32,000 nucleotides of DNA, from NCBI RefSeq assembly GCF_025273655.1, contig NZ_CP045921.1, positions 660,001 to 692,000 on the forward strand, read 5' to 3'. The notes beneath the pieces were generated by a model. That model was given only the letters and a program-made list of their open reading frames with translations, was not told the origin of the DNA and ran no database searches. Of the stretch, positions 6,731 through 28,596 are shown in pieces (position 1 is the first letter of the stretch; every line of letters begins with the position of its first letter). The position numbers and the translations under genes are program-made. The stretch comes from Candidatus Saccharimonadota bacterium. Lineage in GTDB: Bacteria; Patescibacteriota; Saccharimonadia; Saccharimonadales; Saccharimonadaceae.

Positions 6731-7185
6731 TGTTTTGTCTCCTTTTCCATTTGTATATATTTGGTTATTGGTGCGAGTAGCTCCGGATGCGCCGCCCATT
6801 CTCTGTATCTGATCACTATTTGCTCCGCTAGGCTCCGACGAAATCCATCGAGGCTGCGCGCTTCGAACCGTCTAGACTCTGCCGTGTCCAGGGCAAGATC
6901 ATCTGGGTGAAATGATACTACTTCCCCGCCAATTACCAGCCCGACGTACGCCGTATCCTTGCTCAAAATATCTTCATGTACGCGTAGCGCTTGATACAGC
7001 TCTCGCGCCGTGACGTCGCCATCGAGCCCCATCTCACGAATCACCGTGTGAGCAATATGCAAGATGTCGCCGATTAGTTTAGCATCGAGCGCTTGTTTGC
7101 CTGTCGCCTTCTCTAAATCATCAAACGCGATCTCAAGTAACTTCTCACGTGGACGACCCAATAATGTCATAAGCGCGCGCGACAC
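6727..7185 (-). CDS. Hypothetical protein (152 aa), translationally coupled to the LOG-like gene
   Basis: The ORF fills the gap between the PfkB kinase and the LOG-like gene, with an ATGA stop/start overlap downstream. Start is GTG 7185 or ATG 7170. No family recognised. Confidence 0.6.
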   Translation of the reverse strand: MSRALMTLLGRPREKLLEIAFDDLEKATGKQALDAKLIGDILHIAHTVIREMGLDGDVTARELYQALRVHEDILSKDTAYVGLVIGGEVVSFHPDDLALDTAESRRFEARSLDGFRRSLAEQIVIRYREWAAHPELLAPITKYIQMEKETKQ

Positions 7186-7188
7186 GTA

Positions 7189-8157
7189 CTAAAAATCCTT
7201 TTCCTCGACAGGCATATCATGCAATACTATACCCTGGCGCAAAATCCCTTCTTTGGCACCGTATTTCGTTACGACAGAGGTAGAGTTCGCGCTGCCAAAT
7301 ACAATTGCCTCTTTGAGGCTCTTACCTTGAGACCACTGGCTCAGGAAGCCACTCGCAAATGCATCGCCCGCACCGGTGCGATCTACCACTGGCACATCCT
7401 CGTACATACCAGCTGACACAATCGTCTTGCCGTCGCTCGCCACTACACCTCGAGGGCCATCACTGACGATTGCCACTGGTACATAGTGCAGGGCATGCCG
7501 CACCAGCTCTTCGCTCGTCTCGCCGTCGACAAGCATTTGCATTTCTTCCTTGTTCACGCACAATACATCAACGCTACTCAGAAGTGCCTTAAGCTTAGCG
7601 GGTTCAGCCAGTTCTGGCCCCGCCGGGTTGAGCATCACCTTTACGCCAGATTCTTCGGCCTTGTCGATTACTACGCGCAGCAGATCGATACCGCCGAGTG
7701 CTAGCGACGTGGGATATATCCAATCGGCTTCTGCGATAGCCTCAAGATCAAGGTCTTTACCGCTCGCATCGGTCGAGATGCCTCGGTTATTGAGAATGGT
7801 GCGCTCGCCGTCGGTTGCAATGAGGATATTTGAGTAGCCGGCACGGTACTTGTCATCTCGAACTACATGCGACGTATCAACACCTTCGCGGTCAAGATCT
7901 TGCAGTACAGTTTCTGATGCCGGATCATGACCAAGTGTCCACATATAGCTACTCTCGAGTCCTTGACGCGCAAATGTCACTGCCACGTTGCTCGCATTGC
8001 CGCCTGTGGCAAACTTGATATCGTCAACTTCCATCTTTGTGCCAAGTGGGAGGTGTGTGTACGCCACCTTACCTTCCATATACGGACTAAACTCGTCGCT
8101 TTTCAGAAACACGTCTTGCGTCGCCTTGCCTATCGCCAATATCTTCGGTGTACTCAT
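7189..8157 (-). CDS. PfkB-family carbohydrate kinase (ribokinase/phosphofructokinase-B superfamily)
   Basis: 322 aa. N-terminal GGNASNVA and C-terminal DRTGAGDAFASGFL signatures of the PfkB family. Substrate not assignable. Confidence 0.85.
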   Translation of the reverse strand: MSTPKILAIGKATQDVFLKSDEFSPYMEGKVAYTHLPLGTKMEVDDIKFATGGNASNVAVTFARQGLESSYMWTLGHDPASETVLQDLDREGVDTSHVVRDDKYRAGYSNILIATDGERTILNNRGISTDASGKDLDLEAIAEADWIYPTSLALGGIDLLRVVIDKAEESGVKVMLNPAGPELAEPAKLKALLSSVDVLCVNKEEMQMLVDGETSEELVRHALHYVPVAIVSDGPRGVVASDGKTIVSAGMYEDVPVVDRTGAGDAFASGFLSQWSQGKSLKEAIVFGSANSTSVVTKYGAKEGILRQGIVLHDMPVEEKDF

Positions 8158-9577: not shown

Positions 9578-10576
9578 CTATCCCTCCCGATGGTACTGTG
9601 GTGTCGTGTTGATGAATGCCTGGATCACTGTCTGCATCTTCTCTCCGGTCATGCCGAAGTAGTCGAGCAGTTCGTTTGGTGCGCCGCTCTCACCGAAGCG
9701 ATCATACATACCGATACGCTTCAGTGGTGTTGGCATCTTCTCGCTCAGTAGCTCAGCTACTGCGCCACCAAATCCCGCAGCCACCTGCGCTTCTTCGGCG
9801 GTGACGACGCGGCCTGTTTTACGTGCGCTAGCGAGAATCGTGTCTTCGTCGAGTGGTTTGACGGTAGGCACGTGCACAACTTCAGCCGAGACACCGTGCT
9901 GTTCTAGCAGGTGTGCGGCTTTGAGTAGCTGATAGGTCATGGTACCCGTGCCAAGCAGCGATACGTCGTGGCCTTCGCGTAGCACGTAAGCCTTGCCGAG
10001 TTCAAATGGCGATTCGTCAGTACTGAAAATTGGCGTCTTCTCGCGCGCGAGGCGGATATAGCTCGGCTTACCGTTTTCGGCGACTACTTGCGTCGCTTTC
10101 TCGGCTTCCACGCTATCGCCCGGCACCACCACCACCATATGTGGCAGTACACGCATGAGTGCAATATCTTCGAGCATCTGGTGTGTCGCGCCGTCCGGAC
10201 CGACACTCACACCAGCGTGTGAGCCGACGATCTTGACAGGCTGCTCGTTGAGCGCCGCTGTAGTGCGTATCTGCTCCCAGTTGCGACCTGGACTAAACGC
10301 CGCATAGCTACTGGTAAACGGAATCTTGCCCGCACGAGCCAAGCCACTCGCGACCGTCACGAGGTTTTGCTCAGCCACACCGATCTCCACGAAGCGGTCT
10401 GGAAACGCCTCACGAAAATGATGCATCTGCGTACTCTCCGTCAGATCTGCGCACAGCGCCACTACACGCTCATTGGCTTCGCCCGCCTTCTTGAGTCCGC
10501 GACCAAATCCCGCACGTGTCGGCTCCTGCGCCACATCGTCGGCAAACAAATTATCTCGTAGTGGATAGTGTGACAT
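9578..10576 (-). CDS. tkt: Transketolase, C-terminal (pyrimidine-binding plus C-terminal domain) subunit
   Basis: 332 aa. Carries FPDRF.E.GVAEQN and GPDGATHQ..EDIA motifs. It directly follows the N-terminal subunit gene, so the transketolase is split. Confidence 0.9.
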   Translation of the reverse strand: MSHYPLRDNLFADDVAQEPTRAGFGRGLKKAGEANERVVALCADLTESTQMHHFREAFPDRFVEIGVAEQNLVTVASGLARAGKIPFTSSYAAFSPGRNWEQIRTTAALNEQPVKIVGSHAGVSVGPDGATHQMLEDIALMRVLPHMVVVVPGDSVEAEKATQVVAENGKPSYIRLAREKTPIFSTDESPFELGKAYVLREGHDVSLLGTGTMTYQLLKAAHLLEQHGVSAEVVHVPTVKPLDEDTILASARKTGRVVTAEEAQVAAGFGGAVAELLSEKMPTPLKRIGMYDRFGESGAPNELLDYFGMTGEKMQTVIQAFINTTPQYHREG

Positions 10577-12575: not shown

Positions 12576-12666
12576 GCAACCCGAAATCCGTGAGATGCTA
12601 TACCAGTAGGCTCTCAAACTATACTTCCGCGTTTTTGTTTGATAAACATACCATTGACGCTCCTCG

Positions 12667-12695
12667 TTGACGACCTGGGCTCACCATCTTATACT
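12667..12695 (+). promoter_or_regulatory. Orphan near-consensus sigma-70 promoter TTGACG-17-TATACT
   Basis: TTGACG at 12667-12672, a 17-nt spacer, then TATACT at 12690-12695. It points into a 400-nt region with no annotated long gene. A second TTGACG lies at 12654-12659. Confidence 0.5.
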
Positions 12696-12725
12696 ACTGA
12701 TACGCCCACTCGAAAGGACAGTAAC

Positions 12726-12848
12726 GTGCAAAAACTAGTCGCCAGACTGATCAAGTGGCTTGAAAAGTCGACCGATCACACGCGCACACCCCCGCGTAGG
12801 CGGATTCGGAACTGCGATTACCATCGAACCCCTACTTGCGACTGCTGA
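12726..12848 (+). CDS. Candidate small protein (40 aa), amphipathic N-terminus plus C-terminal CxxH-x4-CxC
   Basis: GTG 12726 is preceded by GAAAGGA 7 nt upstream and about 24 nt downstream of the predicted TSS. It encodes VQKLVARLIKWLEKSTDHTRTPPRRRIRNCDYHRTPTCDC. This is the in-frame 3' part of track ORF 12639-12848, whose 5' part lies upstream of the promoter. Confidence 0.3.
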   Translation: MQKLVARLIKWLEKSTDHTRTPPRRRIRNCDYHRTPTCDC

Positions 12849-12864
12849 AACTCCCCGGCGAACC

Positions 12865-12900
12865 CCACCTGCGCAGGCTCATTCGAACTTGCGTAGGTGG
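12865..12900 (+). other. Strong hairpin: 11-bp stem with one G-U that pairs only on the + strand, 14-nt loop
   Basis: CCACCTGCGCA (12865-12875) pairs with TGCGTAGGTGG (12890-12900). The loop-plus-stem core gcgcaggctcattcgaacttgcg resembles gcgtaggcggattcggaactgcg at 12794-12816 (17 of 23 by my count). Confidence 0.45.
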
Positions 12901-12912
12901 ATCACCCTAGCT

Positions 12913-12948
12913 AAATCTTATAAAATACACCCGCGAAGTTGCGGGTGT
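12913..12948 (-). terminator. Rho-independent terminator of gap (possibly bidirectional)
   Basis: ACACCCGC-gaagtt-GCGGGTGT (12927-12948) is followed on the minus strand by ATTTTATAAGATTT. On the + strand the 3' flank is T-poor. Confidence 0.65.
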
Positions 12949-12980
12949 ATTGATAGGATAATGTGCGTATAATATGCGTC

Positions 12981-13997
12981 CTATTTTTCGATAGCTTTCG
13001 CCACATCAGCAACTAGCTCTACCAAGCGGTTGCTATAACCCCATTCGTTATCGTACCAGACAGCGATTTTGATCAGATTGCCACCGACTACCTTGGTAAG
13101 AAGTAGGTCGACAGTACCAGAGTGGCTGTTACCGATATAATCGCGGCTTACCAGTGGCTCTTCGCTCACCGCCAAGATACCCTGGTAGTATGGCTCAGCA
13201 GCAGCTTTTTTGAACACGGCATTGATCTCGTCTACAGTCACATCGCGGCTCAGTAGTGCCGTAACATCACTGATCGATACAACTGGTGTTGGTACACGGA
13301 TAGACAGACCATCGAACTTGCCTTCTAGTTGCGGCAGTGTTTTCGTCACGGCGATTGCAGCACCAGTTGTCGTTGGTACGATATTTTCGGCGCCGTTGCG
13401 ACCTTCACGCAAGTCTTTCTTTGGTGCATCCTGAATCGCTTGACTAGCCGTATAACTATGCACGGTCGTGAGAAGTGATTTCTCTACACCAAACTCCGCG
13501 TCCAGTACCGCCATCACCGCCGCCAGGCTGTTTGTAGTACAGCTCGCGTTGCTAATCACCTCGGTCGAGTGAGGAATCTTGTCATCATTTGCACCGAGTA
13601 CGATCGTATCGACGCCGTCGGATTTGGTAGGACCACTAATCACGACGCGCTTGGCACCAGCTTGCACGTGCTTGCTTGCGCCTTCTTTGTCGGTGAAGAA
13701 ACCAGTTGATTCGATGACGAGTTCTACACCAAGTGTACCCCATGGCAAAGCCGCTGGATCGCGTTCTGCTAGCACTTTGACATGCGTACCGTCCACGATA
13801 ATACCACTGTCGTCGTACCCTACTTCGTGATGATACGTGCCATAATTGCTATCATTTTTGAGCAAATACGCCAATGTTTTCGTATCCGTCAGATCGTTGA
13901 TTGCGACGATTTCAAGATCTTTGCGCTCAAACGCAATCTTAAACGCGTTACGTCCAATACGTCCGAAGCCATTGATGGCTATTTTGGTTTGACTCAT
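12981..13997 (-). CDS. gap: Glyceraldehyde-3-phosphate dehydrogenase
   Basis: 338 aa. INGFGRIGR N-terminus, active-site SNASCTTN and WYDNEWGYS near the C-terminus. Confidence 0.96.
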   Translation of the reverse strand: MSQTKIAINGFGRIGRNAFKIAFERKDLEIVAINDLTDTKTLAYLLKNDSNYGTYHHEVGYDDSGIIVDGTHVKVLAERDPAALPWGTLGVELVIESTGFFTDKEGASKHVQAGAKRVVISGPTKSDGVDTIVLGANDDKIPHSTEVISNASCTTNSLAAVMAVLDAEFGVEKSLLTTVHSYTASQAIQDAPKKDLREGRNGAENIVPTTTGAAIAVTKTLPQLEGKFDGLSIRVPTPVVSISDVTALLSRDVTVDEINAVFKKAAAEPYYQGILAVSEEPLVSRDYIGNSHSGTVDLLLTKVVGGNLIKIAVWYDNEWGYSNRLVELVADVAKAIEK

Positions 13998-14107: not shown

Positions 14108-15649
14108 ATGAAGAAGCGTGAAGTTCTCGAATATGCCGCTCATTTCTACGACGATGAGCAGATGCTTGAGCTGGAACACGCTATCGACTATGCAACCACT
14201 TGCCATGCCGGACAAAAACGTAAAAGTGGCGAACCCTATATCACTCACCCTCTCGCCGTCGCTTATAATCTCATCGACTGGGGCATGGACATCGACACGG
14301 TACTCGCCGGCGTACTGCACGACACTGTCGAAGATACAGACGCAACGCTCGAAGTAGTCGAAACTATGTTTGGGCGCGACGTGGCATTTCTAGTTGACGG
14401 CGTCACCAAGGTATCCCAGGCACGTGCAGGCATGCGCGATCTTGGCAGCTATTTACCGCAGACGCGCGACAATCTTTCCAAACTCCTCATCGCAGTCGGC
14501 CAAGACGTGCGCGTCATCATCATCAAACTCGCCGATCGCCTGCACAATATGTCGACACTGCAGCATATGCCCGTAGACAAGCAGCAGAAGATCGGCCGCG
14601 AAACTATAGAGGTCTTCGCCCCCATGGCAGACCGCCTGGGTATGGGCCGCGTGCGTATGGAGATGGAAGAGTTGGCATTTAGCTACCTCGATCCACACGA
14701 GTTCAAGCATCTTCAGGGACTCATGCGCAAGCGCCTCGGACGCAGTACGCGCAAACTCGGTCTCGTCCGCACCGAGGTAGAGCACCGTTTGGCTCAGGAT
14801 AAATTCGAGTTCGAGATCAACGGACGTGTCAAAAGCATCTATAGCCTGCACAAAAAGCTCAAGAAAGTTGACGGCAATATCGACGATATCTACGATCTCA
14901 TGGCGCTGCGTGTCATCGTCCAATCGAAAGAAGACTGCTACCGCGTCCTCGGTATCTTGCACGGTATGTACCAGCCCATGATCGCCCGCATCAAAGATTA
15001 CATCGCGGTGCCAAAACCAAACGGCTACCAAAGCCTCCACACTACCGTGATCACACCGAGCAAACAAATCGTCGAGTTTCAGATTCGCACACACGAAATG
15101 CACGAATACGCCGAACGCGGACTTGCCGCCAGTTTCCACTACCACGAGCAGAAATCAACCAAAGACTATACCAAGAAAAAGCGTGGCAATGGCGGCCTCC
15201 CAGCCGAACTGCAATGGATTACGCAGATGCAAGAAGTAGCTGCGCGCCTGCGCGACGGCGAAGACATTAGCGAAGACCAGCTAGCGATCGACCTATTCGG
15301 TAACCGCATCTTCGTCTACTCGCCAAAAGGAGACATTTACAATCTACCCGAAGGCGCCTACCCGCTCGATTTTGCCTACCTAGTGCATAGTGACATTGGT
15401 AAACATGCCTATAGCTTCAAGGTCAACGGCAATATCCACGCGTTCGACAAGCCGCTAGGCAACGGCGACGTCGTAGAGGTCGTCACACGCAAACTGCCAC
15501 AGGCAAAAAAAGCTTGGCTCGATCTCGTCATGACCACCCATGCCAAAAGCAAACTCCGCATGCAGCTCAAACAGCTCGGCTTGATCGAAGGTATCTCGCA
15601 CGCCGCCGCTATCATCCGCGACAAAGCCTCCCGCAAAAGCACGAAGTAA
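14108..15649 (+). CDS. rel: Bifunctional (p)ppGpp synthetase/hydrolase, short form (HD + synthetase + TGS only)
   Basis: 513 aa. HD hydrolase motifs (ITHPLAVA, HDTVEDT). Synthetase motifs (GRVKSIYSLHKKL, YDLMALRVIV, NGYQSLHTTV, EFQIRTHEMH). A TGS-like segment (IFVYSPKGDIYNLPEGAYPLDFAY..H..IG). The protein ends about 40 aa later. Confidence 0.9.
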   Translation: MKKREVLEYAAHFYDDEQMLELEHAIDYATTCHAGQKRKSGEPYITHPLAVAYNLIDWGMDIDTVLAGVLHDTVEDTDATLEVVETMFGRDVAFLVDGVTKVSQARAGMRDLGSYLPQTRDNLSKLLIAVGQDVRVIIIKLADRLHNMSTLQHMPVDKQQKIGRETIEVFAPMADRLGMGRVRMEMEELAFSYLDPHEFKHLQGLMRKRLGRSTRKLGLVRTEVEHRLAQDKFEFEINGRVKSIYSLHKKLKKVDGNIDDIYDLMALRVIVQSKEDCYRVLGILHGMYQPMIARIKDYIAVPKPNGYQSLHTTVITPSKQIVEFQIRTHEMHEYAERGLAASFHYHEQKSTKDYTKKKRGNGGLPAELQWITQMQEVAARLRDGEDISEDQLAIDLFGNRIFVYSPKGDIYNLPEGAYPLDFAYLVHSDIGKHAYSFKVNGNIHAFDKPLGNGDVVEVVTRKLPQAKKAWLDLVMTTHAKSKLRMQLKQLGLIEGISHAAAIIRDKASRKSTK

Positions 15650-15693: not shown

Positions 15694-15722
15694 TTGATTA
15701 TATAACAATTATGTGATATAAT
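15694..15722 (+). promoter_or_regulatory. Promoter TTGATT-17-TATAAT (with TGa extension), 6 nt before ATG 15729 (leaderless)
   Basis: TTGATT at 15694-15699 and TGaTATAAT at 15714-15722, then ataatt, then ATG. Confidence 0.55.
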
Positions 15723-15728
15723 ATAATT

Positions 15729-16121
15729 ATGACGAACCTCGAATCGCGGGTCTCTATCTCACTTCCAAATCGCCTGGCCGACACAGAGCTCTATGATATC
15801 ACTAGCGCTCATGGCAGTATTGCTGCAATTTACAGATCAACTGGTGGATTTTATCAGATTGCAGATTTTGAAGTCCATGCGGATTCACGAGGCCTAGGGC
15901 ACGGCAAAGAATTGCTCCATAGTGCAGCACTTCATGCCAGAGAGCTGGGCGCGCGTACTGTATATGCCGCCATCATCTCACGAGAATGCTATGAGGTGAT
16001 GAAGCGCGAATTTGGCGAAGAATCGCTAGAAGTATTGGAGATGGGCGACCCTACCCCTGACGGTCAAGACCAAAACAAAGACTCGCCAACTGCAGCGTTT
16101 TTGTTTCATCATACGAAGTAG
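15729..16121 (+). CDS. Small GNAT-family N-acetyltransferase (130 aa)
   Basis: ADFEVHADSRGLGHGKELLHSAALHARELGARTVY fits the GNAT motif A (R/Q-x-x-G-x-G/A followed by a helix). The target is unknown. Confidence 0.65.
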   Translation: MTNLESRVSISLPNRLADTELYDITSAHGSIAAIYRSTGGFYQIADFEVHADSRGLGHGKELLHSAALHARELGARTVYAAIISRECYEVMKREFGEESLEVLEMGDPTPDGQDQNKDSPTAAFLFHHTK

Positions 16122-16124
16122 GTG

Positions 16125-16211
16125 GCCCGTAAACGCAGCCAGACTATTGGTTACGTGACAATTATGAACCTATCTCTTTCTTTATTTTTGTGGTATAAAT
16201 AGTTTACGGGC
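16125..16211. repeat. 10-bp perfect inverted repeat GCCCGTAAAC / GTTTACGGGC bracketing promoter copy 1
   Basis: 16125-16134 and 16202-16211 are exact reverse complements. The right arm overlaps the start of the conserved leader. Confidence 0.7.
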
Positions 16212-16224
16212 AGCAATCGCTGTC
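16191..16224 (+). promoter_or_regulatory. Promoter/leader copy 1: TGgTATAAA, 8 nt, then GGGCAGCAATCGCTGTC
   Basis: Same architecture and an identical 15-mer as at 17132-17165. The inverted repeat is GGCAGC-aatc-GCTGTC. Confidence 0.6.
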
Positions 16225-16256
16225 TCGTTCCATTTTGCACACGGAAGAGGTGTCGT

Positions 16257-16637
16257 ATGACATCGCCCCGCAAACAACGGCCGAGCAAATACTACTTGGT
16301 GTCGTATCCAGATCCCGCCGCACGCACGCTTCGTATGAAAATTCGGAACGATGTGATGACGGCCGCAGAAGCTGGCAACACTACCGAGCAGGGCAAGATC
16401 TGCGCACGCTACAAGCATCGGCTAGGGTTACGGATCTACATCGGCTGGACTCGGCTCCATGCCAATATGCGCATCGACCCGAATCAGTCGCCACCGCCTA
16501 AAAAGGCCGCAAGTACAAAGCCCGAGCACTACGGCTGCACGTGCGAACGTGACCCCGAGTGTGCCTCTTGCGATCAGGGTTGGCACAAGAGCTGTCACTA
16601 CGGCTGCAAGTACGGCCGGGTTGTACCTCGGTCTTAG
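16257..16637 (+). CDS. Cys-rich protein A (126 aa), unknown family
   Basis: SD GGAAGAGGTG lies 5 nt upstream of the ATG. The C-terminal array YGCTCERDPECASCDQGWHKSCHYGCKYG (16530-16616) is shared with the next ORF, with synonymous DNA differences. Confidence 0.65.
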   Translation: MTSPRKQRPSKYYLVSYPDPAARTLRMKIRNDVMTAAEAGNTTEQGKICARYKHRLGLRIYIGWTRLHANMRIDPNQSPPPKKAASTKPEHYGCTCERDPECASCDQGWHKSCHYGCKYGRVVPRS

Positions 16638-16694
16638 ACGCACCCTTCACCCGGTTGAAGTTTCTACTCGGGAACACCCAGAAGAAGGGCGCCC

Positions 16695-17066
16695 ATGAGA
16701 CCACTGCGCCGCAAGCGATGGCAGATGTTCAACATCTACTACCCTGGATGGATATGGTGTCGCGTTCGCCTCGACCCAGATGAGTTCGAAGCTGCCGACA
16801 CGAACGATGGCGACGACGAAGATGTCGCCAGAGCACGACGCCACATCGGACACATCTACAAAGGTGCGACCGGTATCGATCGAGGCGTTTCGCTCGTGTG
16901 GACGGACTTCGTCTTTCGCCAAGCGGGATCGATCGAGCCATCGTGGCCAGAGCTATATGGTTGCACTTGTACGAGCTTCTGCACACCTTGCGACGTCGGC
17001 TGGCATCTAGAATGCGAGTTCTGTCGCAAATACTACGGCACACCAATCAACTGGATCGAGCCGTAG
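16695..17066 (+). CDS. Cys-rich protein B (123 aa), paralogue of A
   Basis: The upstream sequence GAAGAAGGG is a plausible SD. The C-terminal array is YGCTCTSFCTPCDVGWHLECEFCRKYYG (16956-17039). Confidence 0.65.
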   Translation: MRPLRRKRWQMFNIYYPGWIWCRVRLDPDEFEAADTNDGDDEDVARARRHIGHIYKGATGIDRGVSLVWTDFVFRQAGSIEPSWPELYGCTCTSFCTPCDVGWHLECEFCRKYYGTPINWIEP

Positions 17067-17069
17067 CCC

Positions 17070-17120
17070 CGCCCCTACCCCGCCGTTTACCGAAAACGCC
17101 GAGGAGGGGCGTTTTCATTT
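17070..17120 (+). terminator. GC-rich hairpin plus T-tract after protein B
   Basis: CGCCCCT (17070-17076) or CGCC (17097-17100) can pair with AGGGGCG/GGCG (17105-17111). This is followed by TTTTCATTT. Confidence 0.5.
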
Positions 17121-17131
17121 ATATAATTTTA

Positions 17132-17165
17132 TGTTATAATATAGATATGGGCAGCAATCGCTGCC
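17132..17165 (+). promoter_or_regulatory. Promoter/leader copy 2: TGtTATAAT, 8 nt, then GGGCAGCAATCGCTGCC
   Basis: Consensus extended -10. The perfect inverted repeat GGCAGC-aatc-GCTGCC sits at the predicted transcript start. Confidence 0.6.
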
Positions 17166-17192
17166 TTGATTCGTCCATCGAAAGGTACAGCT

Positions 17193-17588
17193 ATGCAGGA
17201 CAAGATAAGGGTGCTCGTGAGCGATATCGAGGATCTGCTGAGGGTCCTACCACGAGATAGCCATCTCTATGGCAAACTGGATGTGATTCGCGTCAGGCTC
17301 GATGATCTCAGGTTTGAGTTTCCTGATATGCAAGACTGCAAGCTCACGTTGACCAGCGTGGATCTGCCAGATGATCTGCTCGAGTTTCGGACCGTACTAC
17401 CGCAGTGGTTCGTGGACCTTGTCGTTTCTGGCCGACAACTCCCCGTCAGTGAACGCACCGGGCATCAGAATGCCGCCATCTCGCTGCTACCCGTCTGTGC
17501 GAACGAGGTACTCGAGCCCATCGTGGCTGAGTTGCCTCGTATCGGGGGCAACCATGTGTCGCTGCGAGTCGTAGTCGCCGGCGAGTAA
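17193..17588 (+). CDS. Acidic hypothetical protein C (131 aa)
   Basis: ATG 17193 has GAAAGG 7 nt upstream, which I prefer over the TTG at 17166 in the track. It has its own promoter and terminator. No family recognised. Confidence 0.55.
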   Translation: MQDKIRVLVSDIEDLLRVLPRDSHLYGKLDVIRVRLDDLRFEFPDMQDCKLTLTSVDLPDDLLEFRTVLPQWFVDLVVSGRQLPVSERTGHQNAAISLLPVCANEVLEPIVAELPRIGGNHVSLRVVVAGE

Positions 17589-17604
17589 CGCCGCTGGACG
17601 ATAA

Positions 17605-17643
17605 GGGTCGCGCCATTCACTTGGCGCGGCCCTGTTCAATTTT
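17605..17643 (+). terminator. 11-bp hairpin (one G-U) plus T-rich tail after protein C
   Basis: GGGTCGCGCCA-ttcact-TGGCGCGGCCC (17605-17632), followed by tgttcaatttt. Confidence 0.55.
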
Positions 17644-17657
17644 GACCATCAAATGCA

Positions 17658-17672
17658 TTTTGCTTTTTGCAG
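17658..17672. repeat. 15-mer TTTTGCTTTTTGCAG, copy 1
   Basis: Identical to 20226-20240. Both copies lie between a + strand terminator hairpin and the stop of a minus-strand island gene. Confidence 0.8.
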
Positions 17673-17727
17673 ATTACAGAAACTAAAACTCTCTAGAATT
17701 GAACCCTGAGTCCTTGCCTGTTATTTA

Positions 17728-19251
17728 CTATACTTCAGATTCCAGAATTGAGCGTGGGATATAAAGTCGGTCATTTGAGAATTGGATTGCTCCAAATTCT
17801 TGTTTCGATGCGGCGAGTAACGTCATGACTCGGTCAGACATTGTGTCAATCAGCACATTCCCTTCGCCAGTTTTTGTATGCTTGAGGCTTCGTGCGCCAA
17901 GATCCCTGGCATACTTCTTAGGAAGCGCCATGACCTCTCGCCAGTCGAGACCTTCGGATACATCTTGCCGAAATACATACAGAGCATTTGGTCCTGCGAT
18001 AGGGCTTTCTGCGATAGCATGCTCCGCAACTACGTTGTTTTCAGTATCTTTTTCTTGCAGAATCAATAACAAGTACTGGTCAGCTTCTTGTCTGCCGTCC
18101 TCACTGATTATCTTGCGTCCAGAAAGTGAACCCTTGGCGTAGTAGCAATTCTCGCTTCCCCACATCTCACGCACGTTATCCAGTATCTTCAGTCGTTCAA
18201 GTTCGATAGTGGGCCGCATATTCTTTGTTGCCGCGTTTCCTACGATTTCGCGTGCGTATCGCTCCAACTCTCCCGCGGGCAGCACTTCCCAGTTCAGTTC
18301 AGCGGCCGGTTCAAATGAGTCATGTCCTGGAATTAGCATCACTCTGTCCGGAGTAATAGTAAGTTCTTCTAGTACACGATTTTGCACTATCATATCTTCG
18401 ATATCTACATTCGCTAGACTTTTTATCAATTCAAAATATTTTTCACGAGTTTTAGATATGTCAATATCCTGCTGGAGTCTCCCTGAGGAATTTCTCACAA
18501 GAAGTCTTGCTGCAGCTGTATTTATATAGTCATCCAAGCGGCCGCCCGCAACCCGATTCATGCTAGATAGCTTCTTGCCGCTGGGGGCAGTGTAAGATAT
18601 TTGCTTTTCATATTTCCCGAGTAGTTCTTCGGATAGCTCGCCGTCACGGTTGCGGACATACTCCAGCAGAGAGTCGTGCACGGTCTTGAGAGAATCTTTA
18701 TTCTCTCCATGCTCGCCTAGGAGCATAAAGATTGCAAACATTCGCATATCAAGAGAAGCAGAATCATACGTGCGTCCATCTAGACCCTCGTACAATGGCA
18801 GGTTGTTGCATGTACCTATGAAGTTTTGTGCAGCCACATCGGCCAAATAGTCATAATCCCAGTCTTCCGGATGGGCAAAAAACTCATCACGCGATTCAAT
18901 ACCCATTCGGTCTGCAGCCTCCGCCAGGTAGCCAGCAAATTCGTGTGTTGCGTTAATAGTAGATCCAACCCTTTTTTGCTGCAAATACTGCCAGGCAAGT
19001 TTGTCCTGGGGCGTGTTCAAAGGATCAATCCGTGCGTTATGAAGCTTCATGCCCATAACTACTTGATCATCTGCATGACCAACGATATTATACGCGTCTC
19101 CGTCGTCTTCTCTGCCAATCTCAAACATGCGACTATAGATAGGGTTATCTAAAACGTGCTGAAGCTTTAGTGAAAGATCAGCCGGACTTAGTTTCTCTAG
19201 ACCCGGCTCGGTCTCTGATAGTTTTTGCATTCTCTCGTCGAATGTCGTCAT
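17728..19251 (-). CDS. Large ORFan protein (507 aa), AT-richer than its neighbours
   Basis: Long uninterrupted ORF. A consensus extended -10 TGCTATAAT lies 7 nt upstream of the ATG. No TM segments and no family motifs that I can assign. Confidence 0.8.
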   Translation of the reverse strand: MTTFDERMQKLSETEPGLEKLSPADLSLKLQHVLDNPIYSRMFEIGREDDGDAYNIVGHADDQVVMGMKLHNARIDPLNTPQDKLAWQYLQQKRVGSTINATHEFAGYLAEAADRMGIESRDEFFAHPEDWDYDYLADVAAQNFIGTCNNLPLYEGLDGRTYDSASLDMRMFAIFMLLGEHGENKDSLKTVHDSLLEYVRNRDGELSEELLGKYEKQISYTAPSGKKLSSMNRVAGGRLDDYINTAAARLLVRNSSGRLQQDIDISKTREKYFELIKSLANVDIEDMIVQNRVLEELTITPDRVMLIPGHDSFEPAAELNWEVLPAGELERYAREIVGNAATKNMRPTIELERLKILDNVREMWGSENCYYAKGSLSGRKIISEDGRQEADQYLLLILQEKDTENNVVAEHAIAESPIAGPNALYVFRQDVSEGLDWREVMALPKKYARDLGARSLKHTKTGEGNVLIDTMSDRVMTLLAASKQEFGAIQFSNDRLYIPRSILESEV

Positions 19252-19258
19252 ATTTATT

Positions 19259-19267
19259 ATTATAGCA
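19259..19267 (-). promoter_or_regulatory. Extended -10 TGCTATAAT, 7 nt before the ATG of the 507-aa gene (leaderless)
   Basis: The minus strand reads atTGCTATAATaataaatATG. Confidence 0.6.
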
Positions 19268-19350
19268 TAAATTTATAATAAATACAAATATCCGATTTTA
19301 TACTACTCATTCCAAATTTCACACATATCTTTTCTGTGTATAACAATTAT

Positions 19351-19379
19351 TTGTAATAATTACAAAGTAATGTTAAAAT
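19351..19379 (+). promoter_or_regulatory. Promoter TTGTAA-17-TAAAAT (TGt-extended); the -35 lies inside the perfect palindrome TTGTAATAATTACAA
   Basis: Palindrome at 19351-19365. Its other half provides TTGTAA-17-TATACA on the minus strand (box at 19337-19342). Confidence 0.5.
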
Positions 19380-19407
19380 ATACATGTTCTTTTCCGAAAG
19401 GATCAAG

Positions 19408-20112
19408 ATGTTCATTGTAAGTGTACGTAGTTTTGTGATGGATGCAGTGTCACTTTTGGCCTGTGTTCTACTGGGTGTTTTCGCGTTCATGAGTCTGCGC
19501 GACGGAGTGTCTGGCTACGACATCATCCTCATCACTATCACCGTTCTCGTGACGGGACTACTAGTCATGGTGGCTTCGGGTCACCTGGTGAGCCTGGTGC
19601 AGCATCACCGGAGTATGAGGGGTCGTAGCCTGGAACTGCAGGAGTTCTTGCGAACCAAGCATCGACTCGTCAATCTCCTACATAGGGTGCCTGCCACACC
19701 GACGGTTGGTGGAGATATGTACACCATTGGCCTGTCCAAAGACCTGGGTGAGCGGCTCTTGATCGTGCGCAAGTCCTACGGCTTGGAGTGCGTGATAGTG
19801 GATCGTATCGGTACGAAATATGTGAATGACCAAGAAGTAGAGGTCACCCTTTTGAAGGGCATCACTATCCCCTACTCGGACCGCCTGCCGGTACTGGTAC
19901 ATGCATTCGGCAGTGAGCGCATCTGCGGAGAAGTGACCGGTGGAGATGAGGTGCAGTACGCGCAGCACATTGGTGATCAGCTGCGGGAAATAATCGACCG
20001 GCACTTTGGCGCCGGTCGACCGACGCCGATACTGGCAAACAATTTCAACACTGCCAACGTCGACGACTTGCAAGAACTGCTCGATTTCATGCCCGAATCA
20101 ATGCGAGACTGA
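19408..20112 (+). CDS. Membrane-anchored ORFan D (234 aa; two N-terminal TM helices plus a soluble C-terminal domain)
   Basis: Start placed at ATG 19408, with AAAGGA upstream. The track ATG 19384 is only 4 nt after the -10. TM helices are AVSLLACVLLGVFAFMSL and IILITITVLVTGLLVMVASG. Confidence 0.6.
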   Translation: MFIVSVRSFVMDAVSLLACVLLGVFAFMSLRDGVSGYDIILITITVLVTGLLVMVASGHLVSLVQHHRSMRGRSLELQEFLRTKHRLVNLLHRVPATPTVGGDMYTIGLSKDLGERLLIVRKSYGLECVIVDRIGTKYVNDQEVEVTLLKGITIPYSDRLPVLVHAFGSERICGEVTGGDEVQYAQHIGDQLREIIDRHFGAGRPTPILANNFNTANVDDLQELLDFMPESMRD

Positions 20113-20189
20113 CTCAACTCTCGCTCAACTCATAGAAAAGAACTCGCTGACCGAGAACGGTCCGTCTATTGGTACGACGCAAAACTACT

Positions 20190-20240
20190 CGCCCGCGCTG
20201 GACACTTCGGTGTTTGGCGTGGGCGTTTTGCTTTTTGCAG
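20190..20240 (+). terminator. Compound hairpin plus TTTTGCTTTTT after ORF D; contains 15-mer copy 2
   Basis: CGCCCGCG (20190-20197) pairs with CGTGGGCG (20218-20225), with an inner ACAC-ttcg-GTGT hairpin. The T-tract starts at 20226. Confidence 0.6.
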
Positions 20241-20292
20241 GGCTGTTCTATCTACTGAAGGACGTACTTTCTATTCCGTTACGCTTGTTGAC

Positions 20293-20757
20293 CTAAGATC
20301 CGGAAACCATGTAAACAAAAGAAATAATTGCGAGGACCAAGGATAGTGTGGCACAGTGATTCAAAAAACTTATCGAAATATTAGGGAGTTTCACTCTGCA
20401 AAATCCATGCACAGCAATTGCCACCCTTCTGCCACGATCACTTGAGTGGTCTCGAATAATGCGCTGCCACCAATTTAAATCACCTTTCGCCATAAACTTT
20501 TCAAACCATTTCATGGTAAGCTCACTTACTAAGTAGCCTAGAATAATCAGCAACATGGATATTAAAACCAAAATAACCGTAACCTTGTACGATGAATAGC
20601 CCCATAGAACTGGTGAACTTTCACTCCAAGTGTCATTTAGCCCCAGGGCAACAAGTAAACCCGCTGTAGCCACTGTCAACTTAGCCGTATCAAACTGCTT
20701 TTGTAAGTCCGCGCGACTATTCTGTATATCTTCAAGAAGGTTATCATCTGACTTCAC
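20293..20757 (-). CDS. Small multi-TM membrane protein (154 aa)
   Basis: GTG start with GGGAG 8 nt upstream and a GTGA overlap with the upstream stop. Hydrophobic segments are LTVATAGLLVALGL, VTVILVLISMLLIILGYLV and ATLSLVLAIISFVYMV. Confidence 0.6.
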   Translation of the reverse strand: MKSDDNLLEDIQNSRADLQKQFDTAKLTVATAGLLVALGLNDTWSESSPVLWGYSSYKVTVILVLISMLLIILGYLVSELTMKWFEKFMAKGDLNWWQRIIRDHSSDRGRRVAIAVHGFCRVKLPNISISFLNHCATLSLVLAIISFVYMVSGS

Positions 20758-20972
20758 TTCAAACTCTCCCTTTTATCTCTCCATTTACTCACCGGCGCTG
20801 CAAGCATTGATGCCTGAATATCATGAACCGCTGCACGTGTCATATAACCCATGAGTCCCCAAGCAGCTGCATATTCGCAGCTATTATTGTCGGCTTCGTA
20901 CGTCTCGCCCTGCAATTTGCTTGCAAACTCGGTCGCGCGGCCTTGGATTTCGTTCCAACTTAAATTCGTCAT
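20754..20972 (-). CDS. 72-aa protein whose N-terminus resembles the start of MmeI-family type IIL R-M enzymes
   Basis: It starts MTNLSWNEIQGRATEFASK. MmeI, as I recall it, starts MALSWNEIRRKAIEFSKRW. A host-style -10 (TGCGC-TACACT) lies 10 nt upstream of the ATG. It is coupled to the downstream membrane-protein gene. Confidence 0.45.
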   Translation of the reverse strand: MTNLSWNEIQGRATEFASKLQGETYEADNNSCEYAAAWGLMGYMTRAAVHDIQASMLAAPVSKWRDKRESLK

Positions 20973-20982
20973 GTGTGTCCGT

Positions 20983-20993
20983 AGTGTAGCGCA
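20983..20993 (-). promoter_or_regulatory. -10 element TGCGC-TACACT, 10 nt before ATG 20972
   Basis: The minus strand reads gtTGCGCTACACTacggacacacATG. This is the same TGCGCTACA core as the gatC promoter. Confidence 0.45.
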
Positions 20994-21013
20994 ACGAGAG
21001 GTGTTTTGCCAGG

Positions 21014-26094: not shown

Positions 26095-28596
26095 CTAGAC
26101 TACCTGTGCTGCCGTGGCTGCCACGACACGCGACGAGATATCGTCGATCAGCGCAGTTGTGGCATCGTTGGTGAGCGTAGCGGCATATGGTTCGATCGTG
26201 AAACGCAGTGTCACTGTTTTGTCGTCCGAGCCTTCGGGTTGGTAAATCGCCACTGGCTCGAGCGAGATACGCGCATCGACGCTTTCGGCCACAGCAGCAC
26301 GCACAAGCTCATCGTACTGCACACTCTCGGCCACTCGGTAGCTCACGTCGCGCTGCACCGTCTGGTATTTCGCAAGCGGCAAATACTCCGGCATCTGTTC
26401 ACCCACAAACGGCGAGACGAATAACTCAAATCCAGCCACGCGCGCAGGCAGCTTGAAGTTTTTGGCTACCGACTGTCGCAGTTCGCCCACTACACCTGCC
26501 AGCTTGCCATCGATCTCTACCGCCGCGCTGCGTACTGGATCGAACGGCTTCACCAACTGCGCAAACGGTGCGAAGTCTGGCGAGTCGTAGGTATCTAATC
26601 GTACATAGCGCACACCCGAGCGCGGCAGCAGCATCTCTGCTATATAATCAACACTGCGTTTTGCCTGGTAATACGGCGCGTCGCCATCGGCTGACTTGGT
26701 CGCATACACACCCGCTACACGCGCAAACTCTTTAGGTAGCTTATCTTCGCCGAGCACATCCACATGGTGTGCTTTGCCAATTTCGTACAGCATGAACTCA
26801 TCGTGGCCAGCCTTTACGTTCATATGAACTTTGTCGAGCAGGCTCGGCAGCACACTCAGGCGATAATACTGCAAGTCAGGGCTGAGGGCGTTGCTCAGCC
26901 TGAACGCTTCTGTTGGATTCTGGCCAGCTTTTGTGAGCACTTGTTCATGTACGAAGCTATACGTCAGCACTTCGTTGCCGCCAGCCTGGGCAAGAGTGCT
27001 ACGCAGACGAGATTTGGCGACAATGTCGATGTTTTGCGGTGTCGGGCTAGTGCGGCGTAGAGGCAGTTCACGTGGCAGCTTATCAAACCCGTAGAGACGA
27101 CCAACCTCTTCTACAATGTCTTCGGGCTGTTCGATGTCGGTACGCCAAAACGGTACCTTGACGCACAAATAATCTCCGTGACCATCCATGCTATGGCTAT
27201 GAATTTCAACGTTATTCAATAATTGACACATCTCCGCCTCTGATAATTTCAGCCCAAGCCTTGCATTAATAAAATGATCGTCGAGATTAAGACTTGCCGG
27301 AAAGTACTTATCGTTAAAATAGTCATCGTTTTCATCCTCGAATACCTTCTCATCTGACACGTCACTCGCCTGCTCGCCACCAGCCACGTCTTTCACGCTC
27401 ATCATCAGCAAGTTCAATATATGATCATTTTGCAGTGGCGATTGACCTTTGTTGAACCGCGTCAGCGCATCGGTGAAGAGCCCGTGGCGCATGCTCGTCT
27501 TACGTACGGCATACATATCAAATGTCGCTACTTCGAGCACGATATTTTTGGTTTCGCTCGACACTTCACTGTTGCCGCCGCCCATGATACCACCTACGCC
27601 CACGACGCCTTCGTCGTCGGCGATCACTATGTCGTTGCCCGTCAGTTCATACGTCTTGCCGTTGAGTAGTTCGGCCTTTTCTCCGTCTTGCGCCATACGC
27701 GCCACCAGCTTGCCGCCGCGGAGTTTGTCGTAGTCGTAGGCATGCGTCGGCTGCGCCGTCAGGAGCATCACGTAGTTCGTCACGTCGACAATGTTGTTGA
27801 TTGGCTTGGCGCCCATGGCTACGAGTGCGCATTGCAGCCACACCGGACTCGGCTTCACCTCTACGTCTCGCAAGGCCACCGCCATGAAGCGAGGTACTTT
27901 GTCGAGTGCTTCGTTTGTTACCTCAAGTTCTAGACCCTCAGCACTCGCAAACTCTGGCGCATCGCCGTACCAGCTCGGACTCGTGAACTTGTGTCCATAT
28001 ATACCAGCTACTTCGCGCGCCACACCCAGCTGCCCAAACAAGTCGGGGCGGTGCGTAAACATCTTGTTTTCGATATCGATAATCGTGTCGTTTAGTCCGT
28101 ACACTTCAGCGAAACTAGCGCCCGGTTCAATCGCCACGTCACCCGGCTTCCATTCATCGGGATTAATCTCTAATATGCCTTCGTGATCAATGCCGATCGC
28201 CAGTTCATCTGCGGCCGCCAGCATACCGTGACTCATCACTCCGCGCAGTTCACGCGCACCAAGCACAAACGGCTCCGCATCGTCATACGTCGCTGGCACC
28301 GTACTTTCTGCTGGTAACCATACGGCCCACATGTCAGCATGTACATTGGGTGCACCGCAAACCACCTGAATCAGCTCACCTGTTCCGGCGTCGATTTTCG
28401 TTACATTTAGGCGATCGGCATTTGGGTGCTTTTCGCATTCTACTACTTTCACAATCCGAGCATCTTTGTATTTATCCGCCAGATCGACCACTTCTTCTAC
28501 TACACCCAGCTGCGCGTTGAACTTCTGCACCAGCTCATCGACAGGTGGCAGTTCAAAATCTACGAATTGTTTGAGTTGATTGAGGCTAACTTTCAT
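26095..28596 (-). CDS. pheT: Phenylalanine--tRNA ligase beta subunit
   Basis: tRNA-binding domain (KHPNADRL.V..ID.G...QVVCGAPNV), followed by B3/4, B5 and C-terminal domains. Start placed at ATG 28596 (MKVSLNQLKQF), with AAAGGGTG upstream. Confidence 0.92.
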   Translation of the reverse strand: MKVSLNQLKQFVDFELPPVDELVQKFNAQLGVVEEVVDLADKYKDARIVKVVECEKHPNADRLNVTKIDAGTGELIQVVCGAPNVHADMWAVWLPAESTVPATYDDAEPFVLGARELRGVMSHGMLAAADELAIGIDHEGILEINPDEWKPGDVAIEPGASFAEVYGLNDTIIDIENKMFTHRPDLFGQLGVAREVAGIYGHKFTSPSWYGDAPEFASAEGLELEVTNEALDKVPRFMAVALRDVEVKPSPVWLQCALVAMGAKPINNIVDVTNYVMLLTAQPTHAYDYDKLRGGKLVARMAQDGEKAELLNGKTYELTGNDIVIADDEGVVGVGGIMGGGNSEVSSETKNIVLEVATFDMYAVRKTSMRHGLFTDALTRFNKGQSPLQNDHILNLLMMSVKDVAGGEQASDVSDEKVFEDENDDYFNDKYFPASLNLDDHFINARLGLKLSEAEMCQLLNNVEIHSHSMDGHGDYLCVKVPFWRTDIEQPEDIVEEVGRLYGFDKLPRELPLRRTSPTPQNIDIVAKSRLRSTLAQAGGNEVLTYSFVHEQVLTKAGQNPTEAFRLSNALSPDLQYYRLSVLPSLLDKVHMNVKAGHDEFMLYEIGKAHHVDVLGEDKLPKEFARVAGVYATKSADGDAPYYQAKRSVDYIAEMLLPRSGVRYVRLDTYDSPDFAPFAQLVKPFDPVRSAAVEIDGKLAGVVGELRQSVAKNFKLPARVAGFELFVSPFVGEQMPEYLPLAKYQTVQRDVSYRVAESVQYDELVRAAVAESVDARISLEPVAIYQPEGSDDKTVTLRFTIEPYAATLTNDATTALIDDISSRVVAATAAQVV

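Follow-up and report, generated by a model that had tools for sequence, protein, structure and literature searches.

The locus examined here raises the question of what kind of genetic element separates rel from the nudix and ppa genes in Candidatus Mycosynbacter amalyticus, a Saccharibacterium in culture whose complete genome measures 1,081,308 bp, and how it came to lie there. Few members of the candidate phyla radiation have been cultivated; this organism is one of them, and it kills foam-forming Gordonia in wastewater. The window, i.e. the whole stretch of DNA analysed, comprises 32,000 nucleotides (nt) of contig NZ_CP045921.1 (positions 660,001 to 692,000, forward strand); coordinates refer to the window unless a locus is named. 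An initial annotation of the letters had described, between rel and nudix-ppa, an island of seven ORFans in five self-contained expression cassettes, with hints of conflict or defence. The present analysis places this block in a known class, that of the integrase-free flexible genomic islet. We lean, with moderate conviction, towards the fuller reading in which its cassettes are exchanged by recombination at a former site of restriction genes and have roles in biological conflict.

In a genome of only 1.08 Mb, neutrality is improbable for 5 kb of strain-specific genes that look expressed, and the islet offers a locus at which gene flux can be followed in a streamlined parasite. The same DNA was also found in two Logan assemblies. 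The GNAT gene and the open reading frames (ORFs) B to G correspond to QHN42942-QHN42948 with identical proteins. The gene layout is as follows.

15729 to 16121, plus strand: GNAT acetyltransferase, with an Acetyltransf_1 match; accessory
16257 to 16637, plus strand: A, 126 amino acids (aa)
16695 to 17066, plus strand: B, 123 aa
17193 to 17588, plus strand: C, 131 aa
17728 to 19251, minus strand: D, 507 aa
19408 to 20112, plus strand: E, 234 aa
20293 to 20757, minus strand: F, 154 aa
20754 to 20972, minus strand: G, 72 aa

All seven ORFs A to G are present with the sizes first reported, and none of them has a family match at E<0.01 in Pfam, PADLOC, PHROGs or NCBIfam. The term ORFan holds in this sense of a missing named family; it fails for D, A/B, C and E, which have relatives, as described below.

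Insertion at the rel-ppa junction

Around rel homologues, 80 loci were fetched from other genomes, and 46 of them display a window-like rel-ppa arrangement, all from other genera of Saccharibacteria. In 44 of the 46, the ends of rel and ppa lie 9-845 bp apart, leaving room for nudix at most, as against 5,779 bp in the window. Neither GNAT nor any of A to G is encoded in any of the 46 loci, and rel is followed directly by nudix-ppa elsewhere. The proposal of an inserted island is thus upheld by the synteny comparison; the description of the flanks as entirely housekeeping has to be amended, as GNAT is itself accessory. In the closest relatives from other genera (L002 and L003, rel 86-90% identical), the alignment with the window ends at 15633-15634 and restarts at 21013, with only about 30 bp between the two break points in L002. 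Because synteny breaks at 15633|21013 and GNAT is absent elsewhere, the insertion with respect to other genera includes GNAT.

Two of the 46 loci, L030 and L048, carry rel|ppa insertions of their own, of 3-4 kb, with genes unrelated to those of the islet. Translations read by eye suggest a YihY-like membrane protein, a DEAD helicase, a DNA glycosylase and an EEP nuclease in L030 (11482-15765), and a methyltransferase and a PKD-like protein in L048 (10220-13291). These insertions were rejected as versions of the islet on account of their unrelated content and mostly ordinary genes. The rel|ppa junction may be a recurrent insertion site.

Strain variability within the species

A sister strain of the same species, represented by two metagenome contigs (L086 and L087), was compared with the window by blastn. 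Its flanks, about 19 kb, are 96-99% identical to the window (about 97% at the nucleotide level), and the housekeeping proteins are 97-100% identical. The homology ends at 16112, three codons before the GNAT stop, and restarts at 20899, inside G, such that one species displays different content at the same core-gene junction.

16113 to 20898, no strand assigned: strain-variable segment, 4,786 bp in the window versus 1,090 bp in L086/L087

The 1,090 bp of the sister strain consist of a 92-aa A-like ORF with the same Cys/His motif, an allele of B with an amino-acid identity of only 74-76%, and a truncated Mrr-type restriction endonuclease gene lacking a start codon (Pfam Mrr_cat, E = 5.6e-20, profile positions 33-115 of 115). 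Of G, only the first 24 codons (from 20899) are common to the two strains. The sister copies of GNAT are 99% identical to that of the window; they align only from residue 8 on, with a break of the reading frame near codon 7. As this break occurs in two independent assemblies, GNAT is probably a pseudogene in the sister strain.

L086 9207 to 9598: sister-strain copy of GNAT
L087 494 to 856: sister-strain copy of GNAT

The left flank is 99.7-100% identical to the sister strain up to a sharp break, and the right flank is 89.7% identical beside the islet, climbing to 96-99%. The synonymous divergence (dS) of B between the two strains is 0.70, versus 0.09-0.27 in flanking genes. This pattern of flank identity, along with the dS of B, is better accounted for by recombinational replacement from a more distant donor than by a simple deletion. 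When further alleles were sought via the exact ppa protein, only the same strain was returned.

Cassette organisation and regulatory modules

The seven ORFs fall into five units, viz. A-B, C, D, E and G-F, B being probably co-transcribed with A. Intergenic spacers inside the segment measure 126-180 nt, as compared to mostly 0-48 nt in the rest of the window. Consensus scans placed promoter-like sites upstream of GNAT (a strong one, at 15694-15722), C, D and E, and hairpin-plus-T sites 3' of B, C and E; the raw counts of both kinds of site are not above those of shuffled sequence (14 versus 10.1±3.4 and 11 versus 7.9±2.7, respectively). The units are delimited by homology between genomes. A block at 17086-17642, 82% identical to L088/L089, begins at the terminator of B, takes in the promoter and coding region of C, and ends at the terminator of C; a longer one at 16709-17642, comprising B and C, is 82% identical to L090; and the block at 19345-20237, 77% identical to L091/L092, extends from the promoter of E through E to its terminator. 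All of these counterparts sit in other genomic contexts. As the blocks are bounded by a promoter or preceding terminator on one side and their own terminator on the other, the cassette units are confirmed independently of the consensus scans, and the earlier division into five self-contained units stands. The regulatory elements are listed below.

16177 to 16225, plus strand: promoter and 5' leader hairpin upstream of A, a 49-nt direct repeat of 17118-17166
17092 to 17116, plus strand: terminator hairpin after B, conserved in L086, L088 and L090
17112 to 17166, plus strand: promoter (TG-extended TATAAT) and leader hairpin GGGCAGC-AATC-GCTGCCT upstream of C
16209 to 16224 and 17150 to 17165 in the window, 9950 to 9970 and 10483 to 10500 in L088, 3015 to 3030 in L090: copies of the leader stem-loop
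17604 to 17633, plus strand: hairpin terminator with a 12-bp stem between convergent C and D, at the end of the block common to L088 and L090
19252 to 19407, no strand assigned: AT-rich divergent promoter region of D and E, with promoter-like sites on both strands
20143 to 20236, plus strand: 94-nt 3' module after E, ending in a 16-bp terminator hairpin and recurring after unrelated genes
10727 to 10830 in L091: further site of the 94-nt module

The same promoter and leader hairpin precedes A, C and their relatives in L088 and L090. The promoter-leader consists of GRRCAGCARTCGCTGY after TATAAT. The motif GGCAGCAATCGCTGYC occurs twice in the window, versus 0.02 expected by chance. A 7-bp stem-loop lies directly 3' of the −10 box in five copies, with G-C/G-U/A-U variation between them. 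Pairing is possible at all 35 of the 35 pair positions in the five copies, among them one compensatory change and several G-U wobbles. This hints at an RNA stem; the element may act as a 5' mRNA stem or as an operator. No match to the promoter-leader motif was found in viral contigs, and at least 15 matches in metagenome contigs were set aside as chance, being devoid of related proteins or flanks. Upstream of the A-like gene of L086 the sequence is different, and a similar 6-bp/4-nt hairpin can be read there by eye.

The 94-nt module after E is 91% identical to L088 11599-11692, where it lies 3' of an unrelated 152-aa gene, and its hairpin part (20192-20235) is also 91% identical to a second site in L091 (11938-11981). 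Its folding z-score is −2.95. With its small hairpins and terminator stem, the module is more conserved (91%) than the adjoining coding sequences, and it recurs in several variable loci of Saccharibacteria.

Two start codons lie close to their promoters. That of GNAT begins 6 nt after a perfect TG-extended TATAAT box (15694-15731), a spacing which suggests a leaderless mRNA; that of D, read by eye, is about 10 nt from a TGCTATAAT box on the minus strand.

GNAT and the A/B-C module

The GNAT protein matches Pfam Acetyltransf_1 with 25.9 bits, above the gathering cutoff of 20.7. A is a basic protein (isoelectric point 9.7) with seven cysteines and a Cys/His knuckle, and is paralogous to B (BLASTP E = 6e-9). 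Metal knuckles had been noted in the initial annotation; they are real and define a small family of nine members with the invariant motif C-x(3-5)-C-x2-C-D-x-G-x-H-x2-C. A is without annotation in GenBank and RefSeq, where QHN42942 (GNAT) is directly followed by QHN42943 (B), and, having no NCBI accession, is seen only in Logan. Its relatives at 65-69% identity, together with a ratio of nonsynonymous to synonymous substitution (dN/dS) of 0.22, make it look like a missed gene.

C is an acidic protein. C-like genes (74-77% identity) follow an A-like gene in L088 and L089 and a B-like gene in L090, and this order, an A/B-type gene and then C, in three loci marks a conserved module. Where the A-C pair is found elsewhere, genes for GIY-YIG, T5orf172, YgjP and type I restriction-modification (R-M) proteins lie 3-9 kb away.

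The dN/dS values of A, B, C and E range from 0.14 to 0.30 (0.14-0.30 for C itself, 0.21 for E), as compared to 0.01-0.08 for the flanking genes; these four genes are under purifying selection, more relaxed than that on the flanks. Sequence searches of PDB with the A/B profile and with C gave no match, and plasmid searches for B and C gave no relatives. A signal-peptide-like N-terminal hydrophobic segment was found in none of A, B, C and D.

Protein D and its family

D consists of a variable, all-helical N-terminal half and a conserved C-terminal α/β domain (residues about 319-507, i.e. the last 190). One database holds 32 relatives (32-53% identity), all of them free of Pfam domains, and another at least 306 clusters at E<=1e-3. 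Among the conserved residues are W321, R353, Y393, E415-S416-P417, Y425, R428, K445, R454 and H458. The AlphaFold2 model of full-length D has a predicted local distance difference test score (pLDDT) of 81, and that of the C-terminal domain has a pLDDT of 85 and a predicted template modelling (pTM) score of 0.83. Sequence searches of PDB with D and with the profile of its C-terminal domain gave no match, and a GNAT fold is not claimed, as the repeated matches to GNAT folds have template modelling (TM) scores of at most 0.25. The RefSeq label of D, 'DUF3131 domain-containing protein', was not reproduced in Pfam-A (E<=1) or NCBIfam (E<=10); hmmscan of D against Pfam-A at E<=1 returned a chance MBD match only.

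In one distant member of the D-domain family, of 972 aa and found on nine contigs, the domain is fused to a double-stranded RNA-binding domain and RNase III, at a locus with GmrSD, NYN, PglZ-kinase and Cas3-like helicase genes. Plasmids of Mycolicibacterium, Rhodococcus and Mycobacterium carry the domain as well (E = 4e-14 to 4e-7), encoded beside a type I R-M system, an NYN gene, or IS1380 and MobF; this links a protein domain of Saccharibacteria to plasmids of the order of the host. The C-terminal domain of D, the A/B zinc knuckle and C constitute three uncharacterised protein families which, with the missed gene A, are available in a cultivable organism.

In two unrelated contexts, a D-domain protein and a homologous NYN-domain protein (32% identity, E = 1e-21) are encoded close together, with an unrelated protein of about 270 aa 3' of the NYN gene in both. 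This neighbourhood may represent a conserved multi-gene system.

L109 8001 to 13283, and L110: D-domain/NYN context
L112 4670 to 7549 (Rhodococcus plasmid pDF02): D-domain/NYN context

E, F, G and the probable traces of restriction genes

E has two N-terminal membrane helices and a soluble domain. Its one relative cluster, P0048 (70% identity), adjoins PIN, DUF4268 and type III R-M genes; a plasmid search gave no relatives. F is a membrane protein; its gene has a 4-nt overlap with the stop codon of G, and its GC content at third codon positions (GC3), 0.413, is the lowest in the window. No relatives of F were found in the compared loci or in plasmids.

An MmeI-like N-terminal remnant had been noted among the motif hints. 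Residues 4-46 of G can indeed be aligned with residues 3-45 of an enzyme of 937 aa in which all five MmeI Pfam domains are present (35% identity over 43 aa, pairwise E = 2e-6), and its four weak plasmid matches are all N-termini of DNA methyltransferase genes. No intact MmeI-like gene was found in any related locus. As the similarity is short, and weak at database level, the reading of G as a gene remnant of an MmeI-family R-M enzyme is plausible, not proven. The MmeI-type first codons of G and the truncated Mrr gene of the sister strain together indicate that the site probably once held restriction genes.

Composition and borders

The mosaic composition first noted from single lines holds good. 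The GC content of 60-nt lines is 0.60-0.62 at 16.5 kb and varies from 0.28 to 0.58 inside D, and the line-to-line variance is higher in the islet than in the rest of the window (Levene p = 2.6e-6). The tetranucleotide deviation peaks over D (z = 4.07 at 17501-19500), as against z = 0.34 in the A-B-C part. D and F have the two lowest GC3 values in the window (0.449 for D), compared with 0.63-0.67 in A, B, C and E. The composition of the islet is therefore atypical as judged against the 32-kb window only, and its mosaic fits separate origins of the cassettes.

The borders are as bare as had been proposed. No integrase or transposase domain was found in any ORF of 15729-20972 or in the flanking genes, no tRNA or tmRNA in the 32-kb window, no direct repeat bracketing the segment, and no Rfam family or meaningful tandem repeat within it. 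Readings as a prophage, an integron or a classical tRNA island were rejected, since their defining parts are absent.

Relation to known systems

Flexible genomic islets with integrase-free replacement resemble the present block in the fixed core-gene position, the content that differs between strains, the atypical composition, the absence of an integrase, tRNA and repeats, and the raised divergence in one flank. The block differs in being very small (4.8 kb), in having two alleles seen so far, and in being exchanged as single promoter-ORF-terminator cassettes whose regulatory ends recur. A classical island mediated by an integrase would differ in its integrase, tRNA site and flanking repeats, none of which is present here. 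Integron cassette arrays are likewise short arrays of compact, individually mobile coding units; the islet, by contrast, has no IntI, attC or repeated imperfect inverted-repeat site at cassette ends, and its units possess their own promoter and terminator and lie on both strands.

Defence islands are matched in the restriction remnants at the site and in the occurrence of relatives beside R-M, PIN, GmrSD and NYN genes; the islet differs in that PADLOC recognises no intact defence gene, only the MmeI-like start of G and the Mrr_cat fragment of the sister strain recalling such genes. G is similar to MmeI-family type IIL enzymes at residues 4-46 only, and with 72 aa lacks the nuclease, helicase-spacer, methyltransferase and target recognition domain (TRD) regions. 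A/B and C are reminiscent of toxin-antitoxin modules, in that two genes for small proteins, the second of them acidic, stand in a row and are kept together in at least three other variable-region loci; in contrast to such modules, C has its own promoter, the terminator of B lies in between, and no toxin or antitoxin was matched in Pfam or PADLOC.

Origin and role of the islet

The reading we favour may be put as follows. Between convergent rel and nudix, which lie close together in almost every other member of the Saccharibacteria, the islet would have been put together from GNAT and the independent promoter-ORF-terminator cassettes A-B, C, D, E and G-F. Their source would be a pool of accessory genes found for the most part in Saccharibacteria-like contigs, and at other variable loci of related genomes the cassettes recur together with their regulatory ends. 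The content would be exchanged by homologous recombination on the conserved flanks after DNA uptake, with no need of a site-specific integrase. Natural competence is reported for Saccharibacteria (PMC10633639), and Patescibacteria often carry genomic islands (PMC12455944). The functions might lie in conflict, such as phage defence, anti-defence or host interaction, with D possibly acting on nucleic acids and the zinc-knuckle proteins A/B possibly working together with C. Relatives occur near R-M, PIN, GmrSD or NYN genes in 6 of about 13 contexts inspected, a figure that stands with no background rate for comparison.

Several observations weigh against this reading. The defence or conflict island of the initial annotation is not demonstrated: PADLOC gives no match for A to G even at E<=1, the case consists of the restriction remnants and the neighbourhoods of relatives, and the association suggested by the latter comes from a handful of loci chosen by availability, without statistics. 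Relatives of D in Saccharibacteria-like contigs are stand-alone genes with mostly ordinary neighbours and no constant partner, and Foldseek searches of PDB and BFVD with the models of full-length D and of its C-terminal domain gave no match at E<0.1. The similarity of G to MmeI enzymes covers only 43 residues and is not significant at database level (E about 6), and Pfam finds in G no MmeI_N, helicase-spacer, methyltransferase, TRD or C-terminal domain. The covariation in the leader hairpin is statistically not significant with five sequences. As regards turnover in the population, only one alternative allele of the locus was found, and we infer exchange by transformation from the absence of mobility genes.

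A bolder version, in which the islet holds unrecognised conflict systems, with the C-terminal domain of D as a new nucleic-acid-directed effector or sensor, A/B-C as a new two-component module, and the promoter-leader and 94-nt modules as homology anchors for integrase-free cassette swapping, appears unlikely at present.

Of the other explanations, one relates the genes to the host: Ca. Mycosynbacter amalyticus is an obligate parasite of Gordonia (PMC11880426), and the islet could carry factors used on or against this host, for instance membrane proteins, effectors that are secreted or injected, or regulators, which would vary with the host range of the strain. The membrane proteins E and F, the occurrence of the C-terminal domain of D on plasmids of Mycobacteriales, the order of the host, and a selection that is relaxed yet purifying agree with such a cargo, which we regard as a minority possibility, unlikely on balance; A to D lack a signal-peptide-like N-terminal hydrophobic segment, and the R-M remnants and the R-M/PIN/GmrSD neighbourhoods point more to nucleic-acid conflict. 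Differential loss, i.e. a block ancestral to the lineage and deleted in the sister strain and the other genera, would account for what the sister strain retains, since GNAT, the A-like and B-like genes and the first 24 codons of G indicate that some of the content predates the split of the strains, and the Mrr fragment and the frameshifted GNAT are signs of decay and deletion at the site. Against it stand the lack of any island gene in all 46 loci of other genera, the composition of D and F, the most atypical of the window, the C and E cassettes at unrelated loci elsewhere, and the synonymous divergence of B, about 3-8 times that of flanking genes, which a simple deletion leaves unexplained; such loss is an unlikely account.

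A decayed mobile element, be it what is left of a prophage, satellite or integrative element after loss of its integrase and ends, would be in keeping with the insertion, the atypical composition, the many small genes of unknown function and the alternating strand blocks. It is nevertheless very unlikely: there are no PHROG matches, IMG/VR holds no relatives of D (searched as single protein and profile), C or the A/B profile, the D domain is found in none of the GenBank phages, an integrase, tRNA and repeats are missing, and other genomes carry the cassettes one by one instead of as a single co-linear element. Mostly non-functional DNA, in which decaying genes and chance ORFs have no present role, is the least credible of these explanations and highly improbable. 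It could draw on the resemblance of G to a truncated remnant fused to unrelated sequence, on the truncated Mrr and frameshifted GNAT of the sister strain and on the lack of any F relatives found, and is opposed by the dN/dS of 0.14-0.30 for A, B, C and E, the strong conservation of the D domain in at least 306 clusters with a confident fold prediction, and the conservation of the promoter-leader and terminator modules. If the genes of the islet are defence or host-range factors, they bear on how an ultrasmall epibiont survives phages and chooses its host; if they are neither, this is an ordinary variable islet.

Other differences in the window

Beyond the islet, a second difference in synteny lies upstream of gapdh, where the intergenic gap is 401 nt in the window (12579-12981) versus about 1.7 kb in L002 (7128-8870). 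Identity to the strain of the same species dips to about 87% at 7112-7411 and at 27499-27798, in surroundings of 95-100%; these dips may be further recombination tracts or fast-evolving genes.

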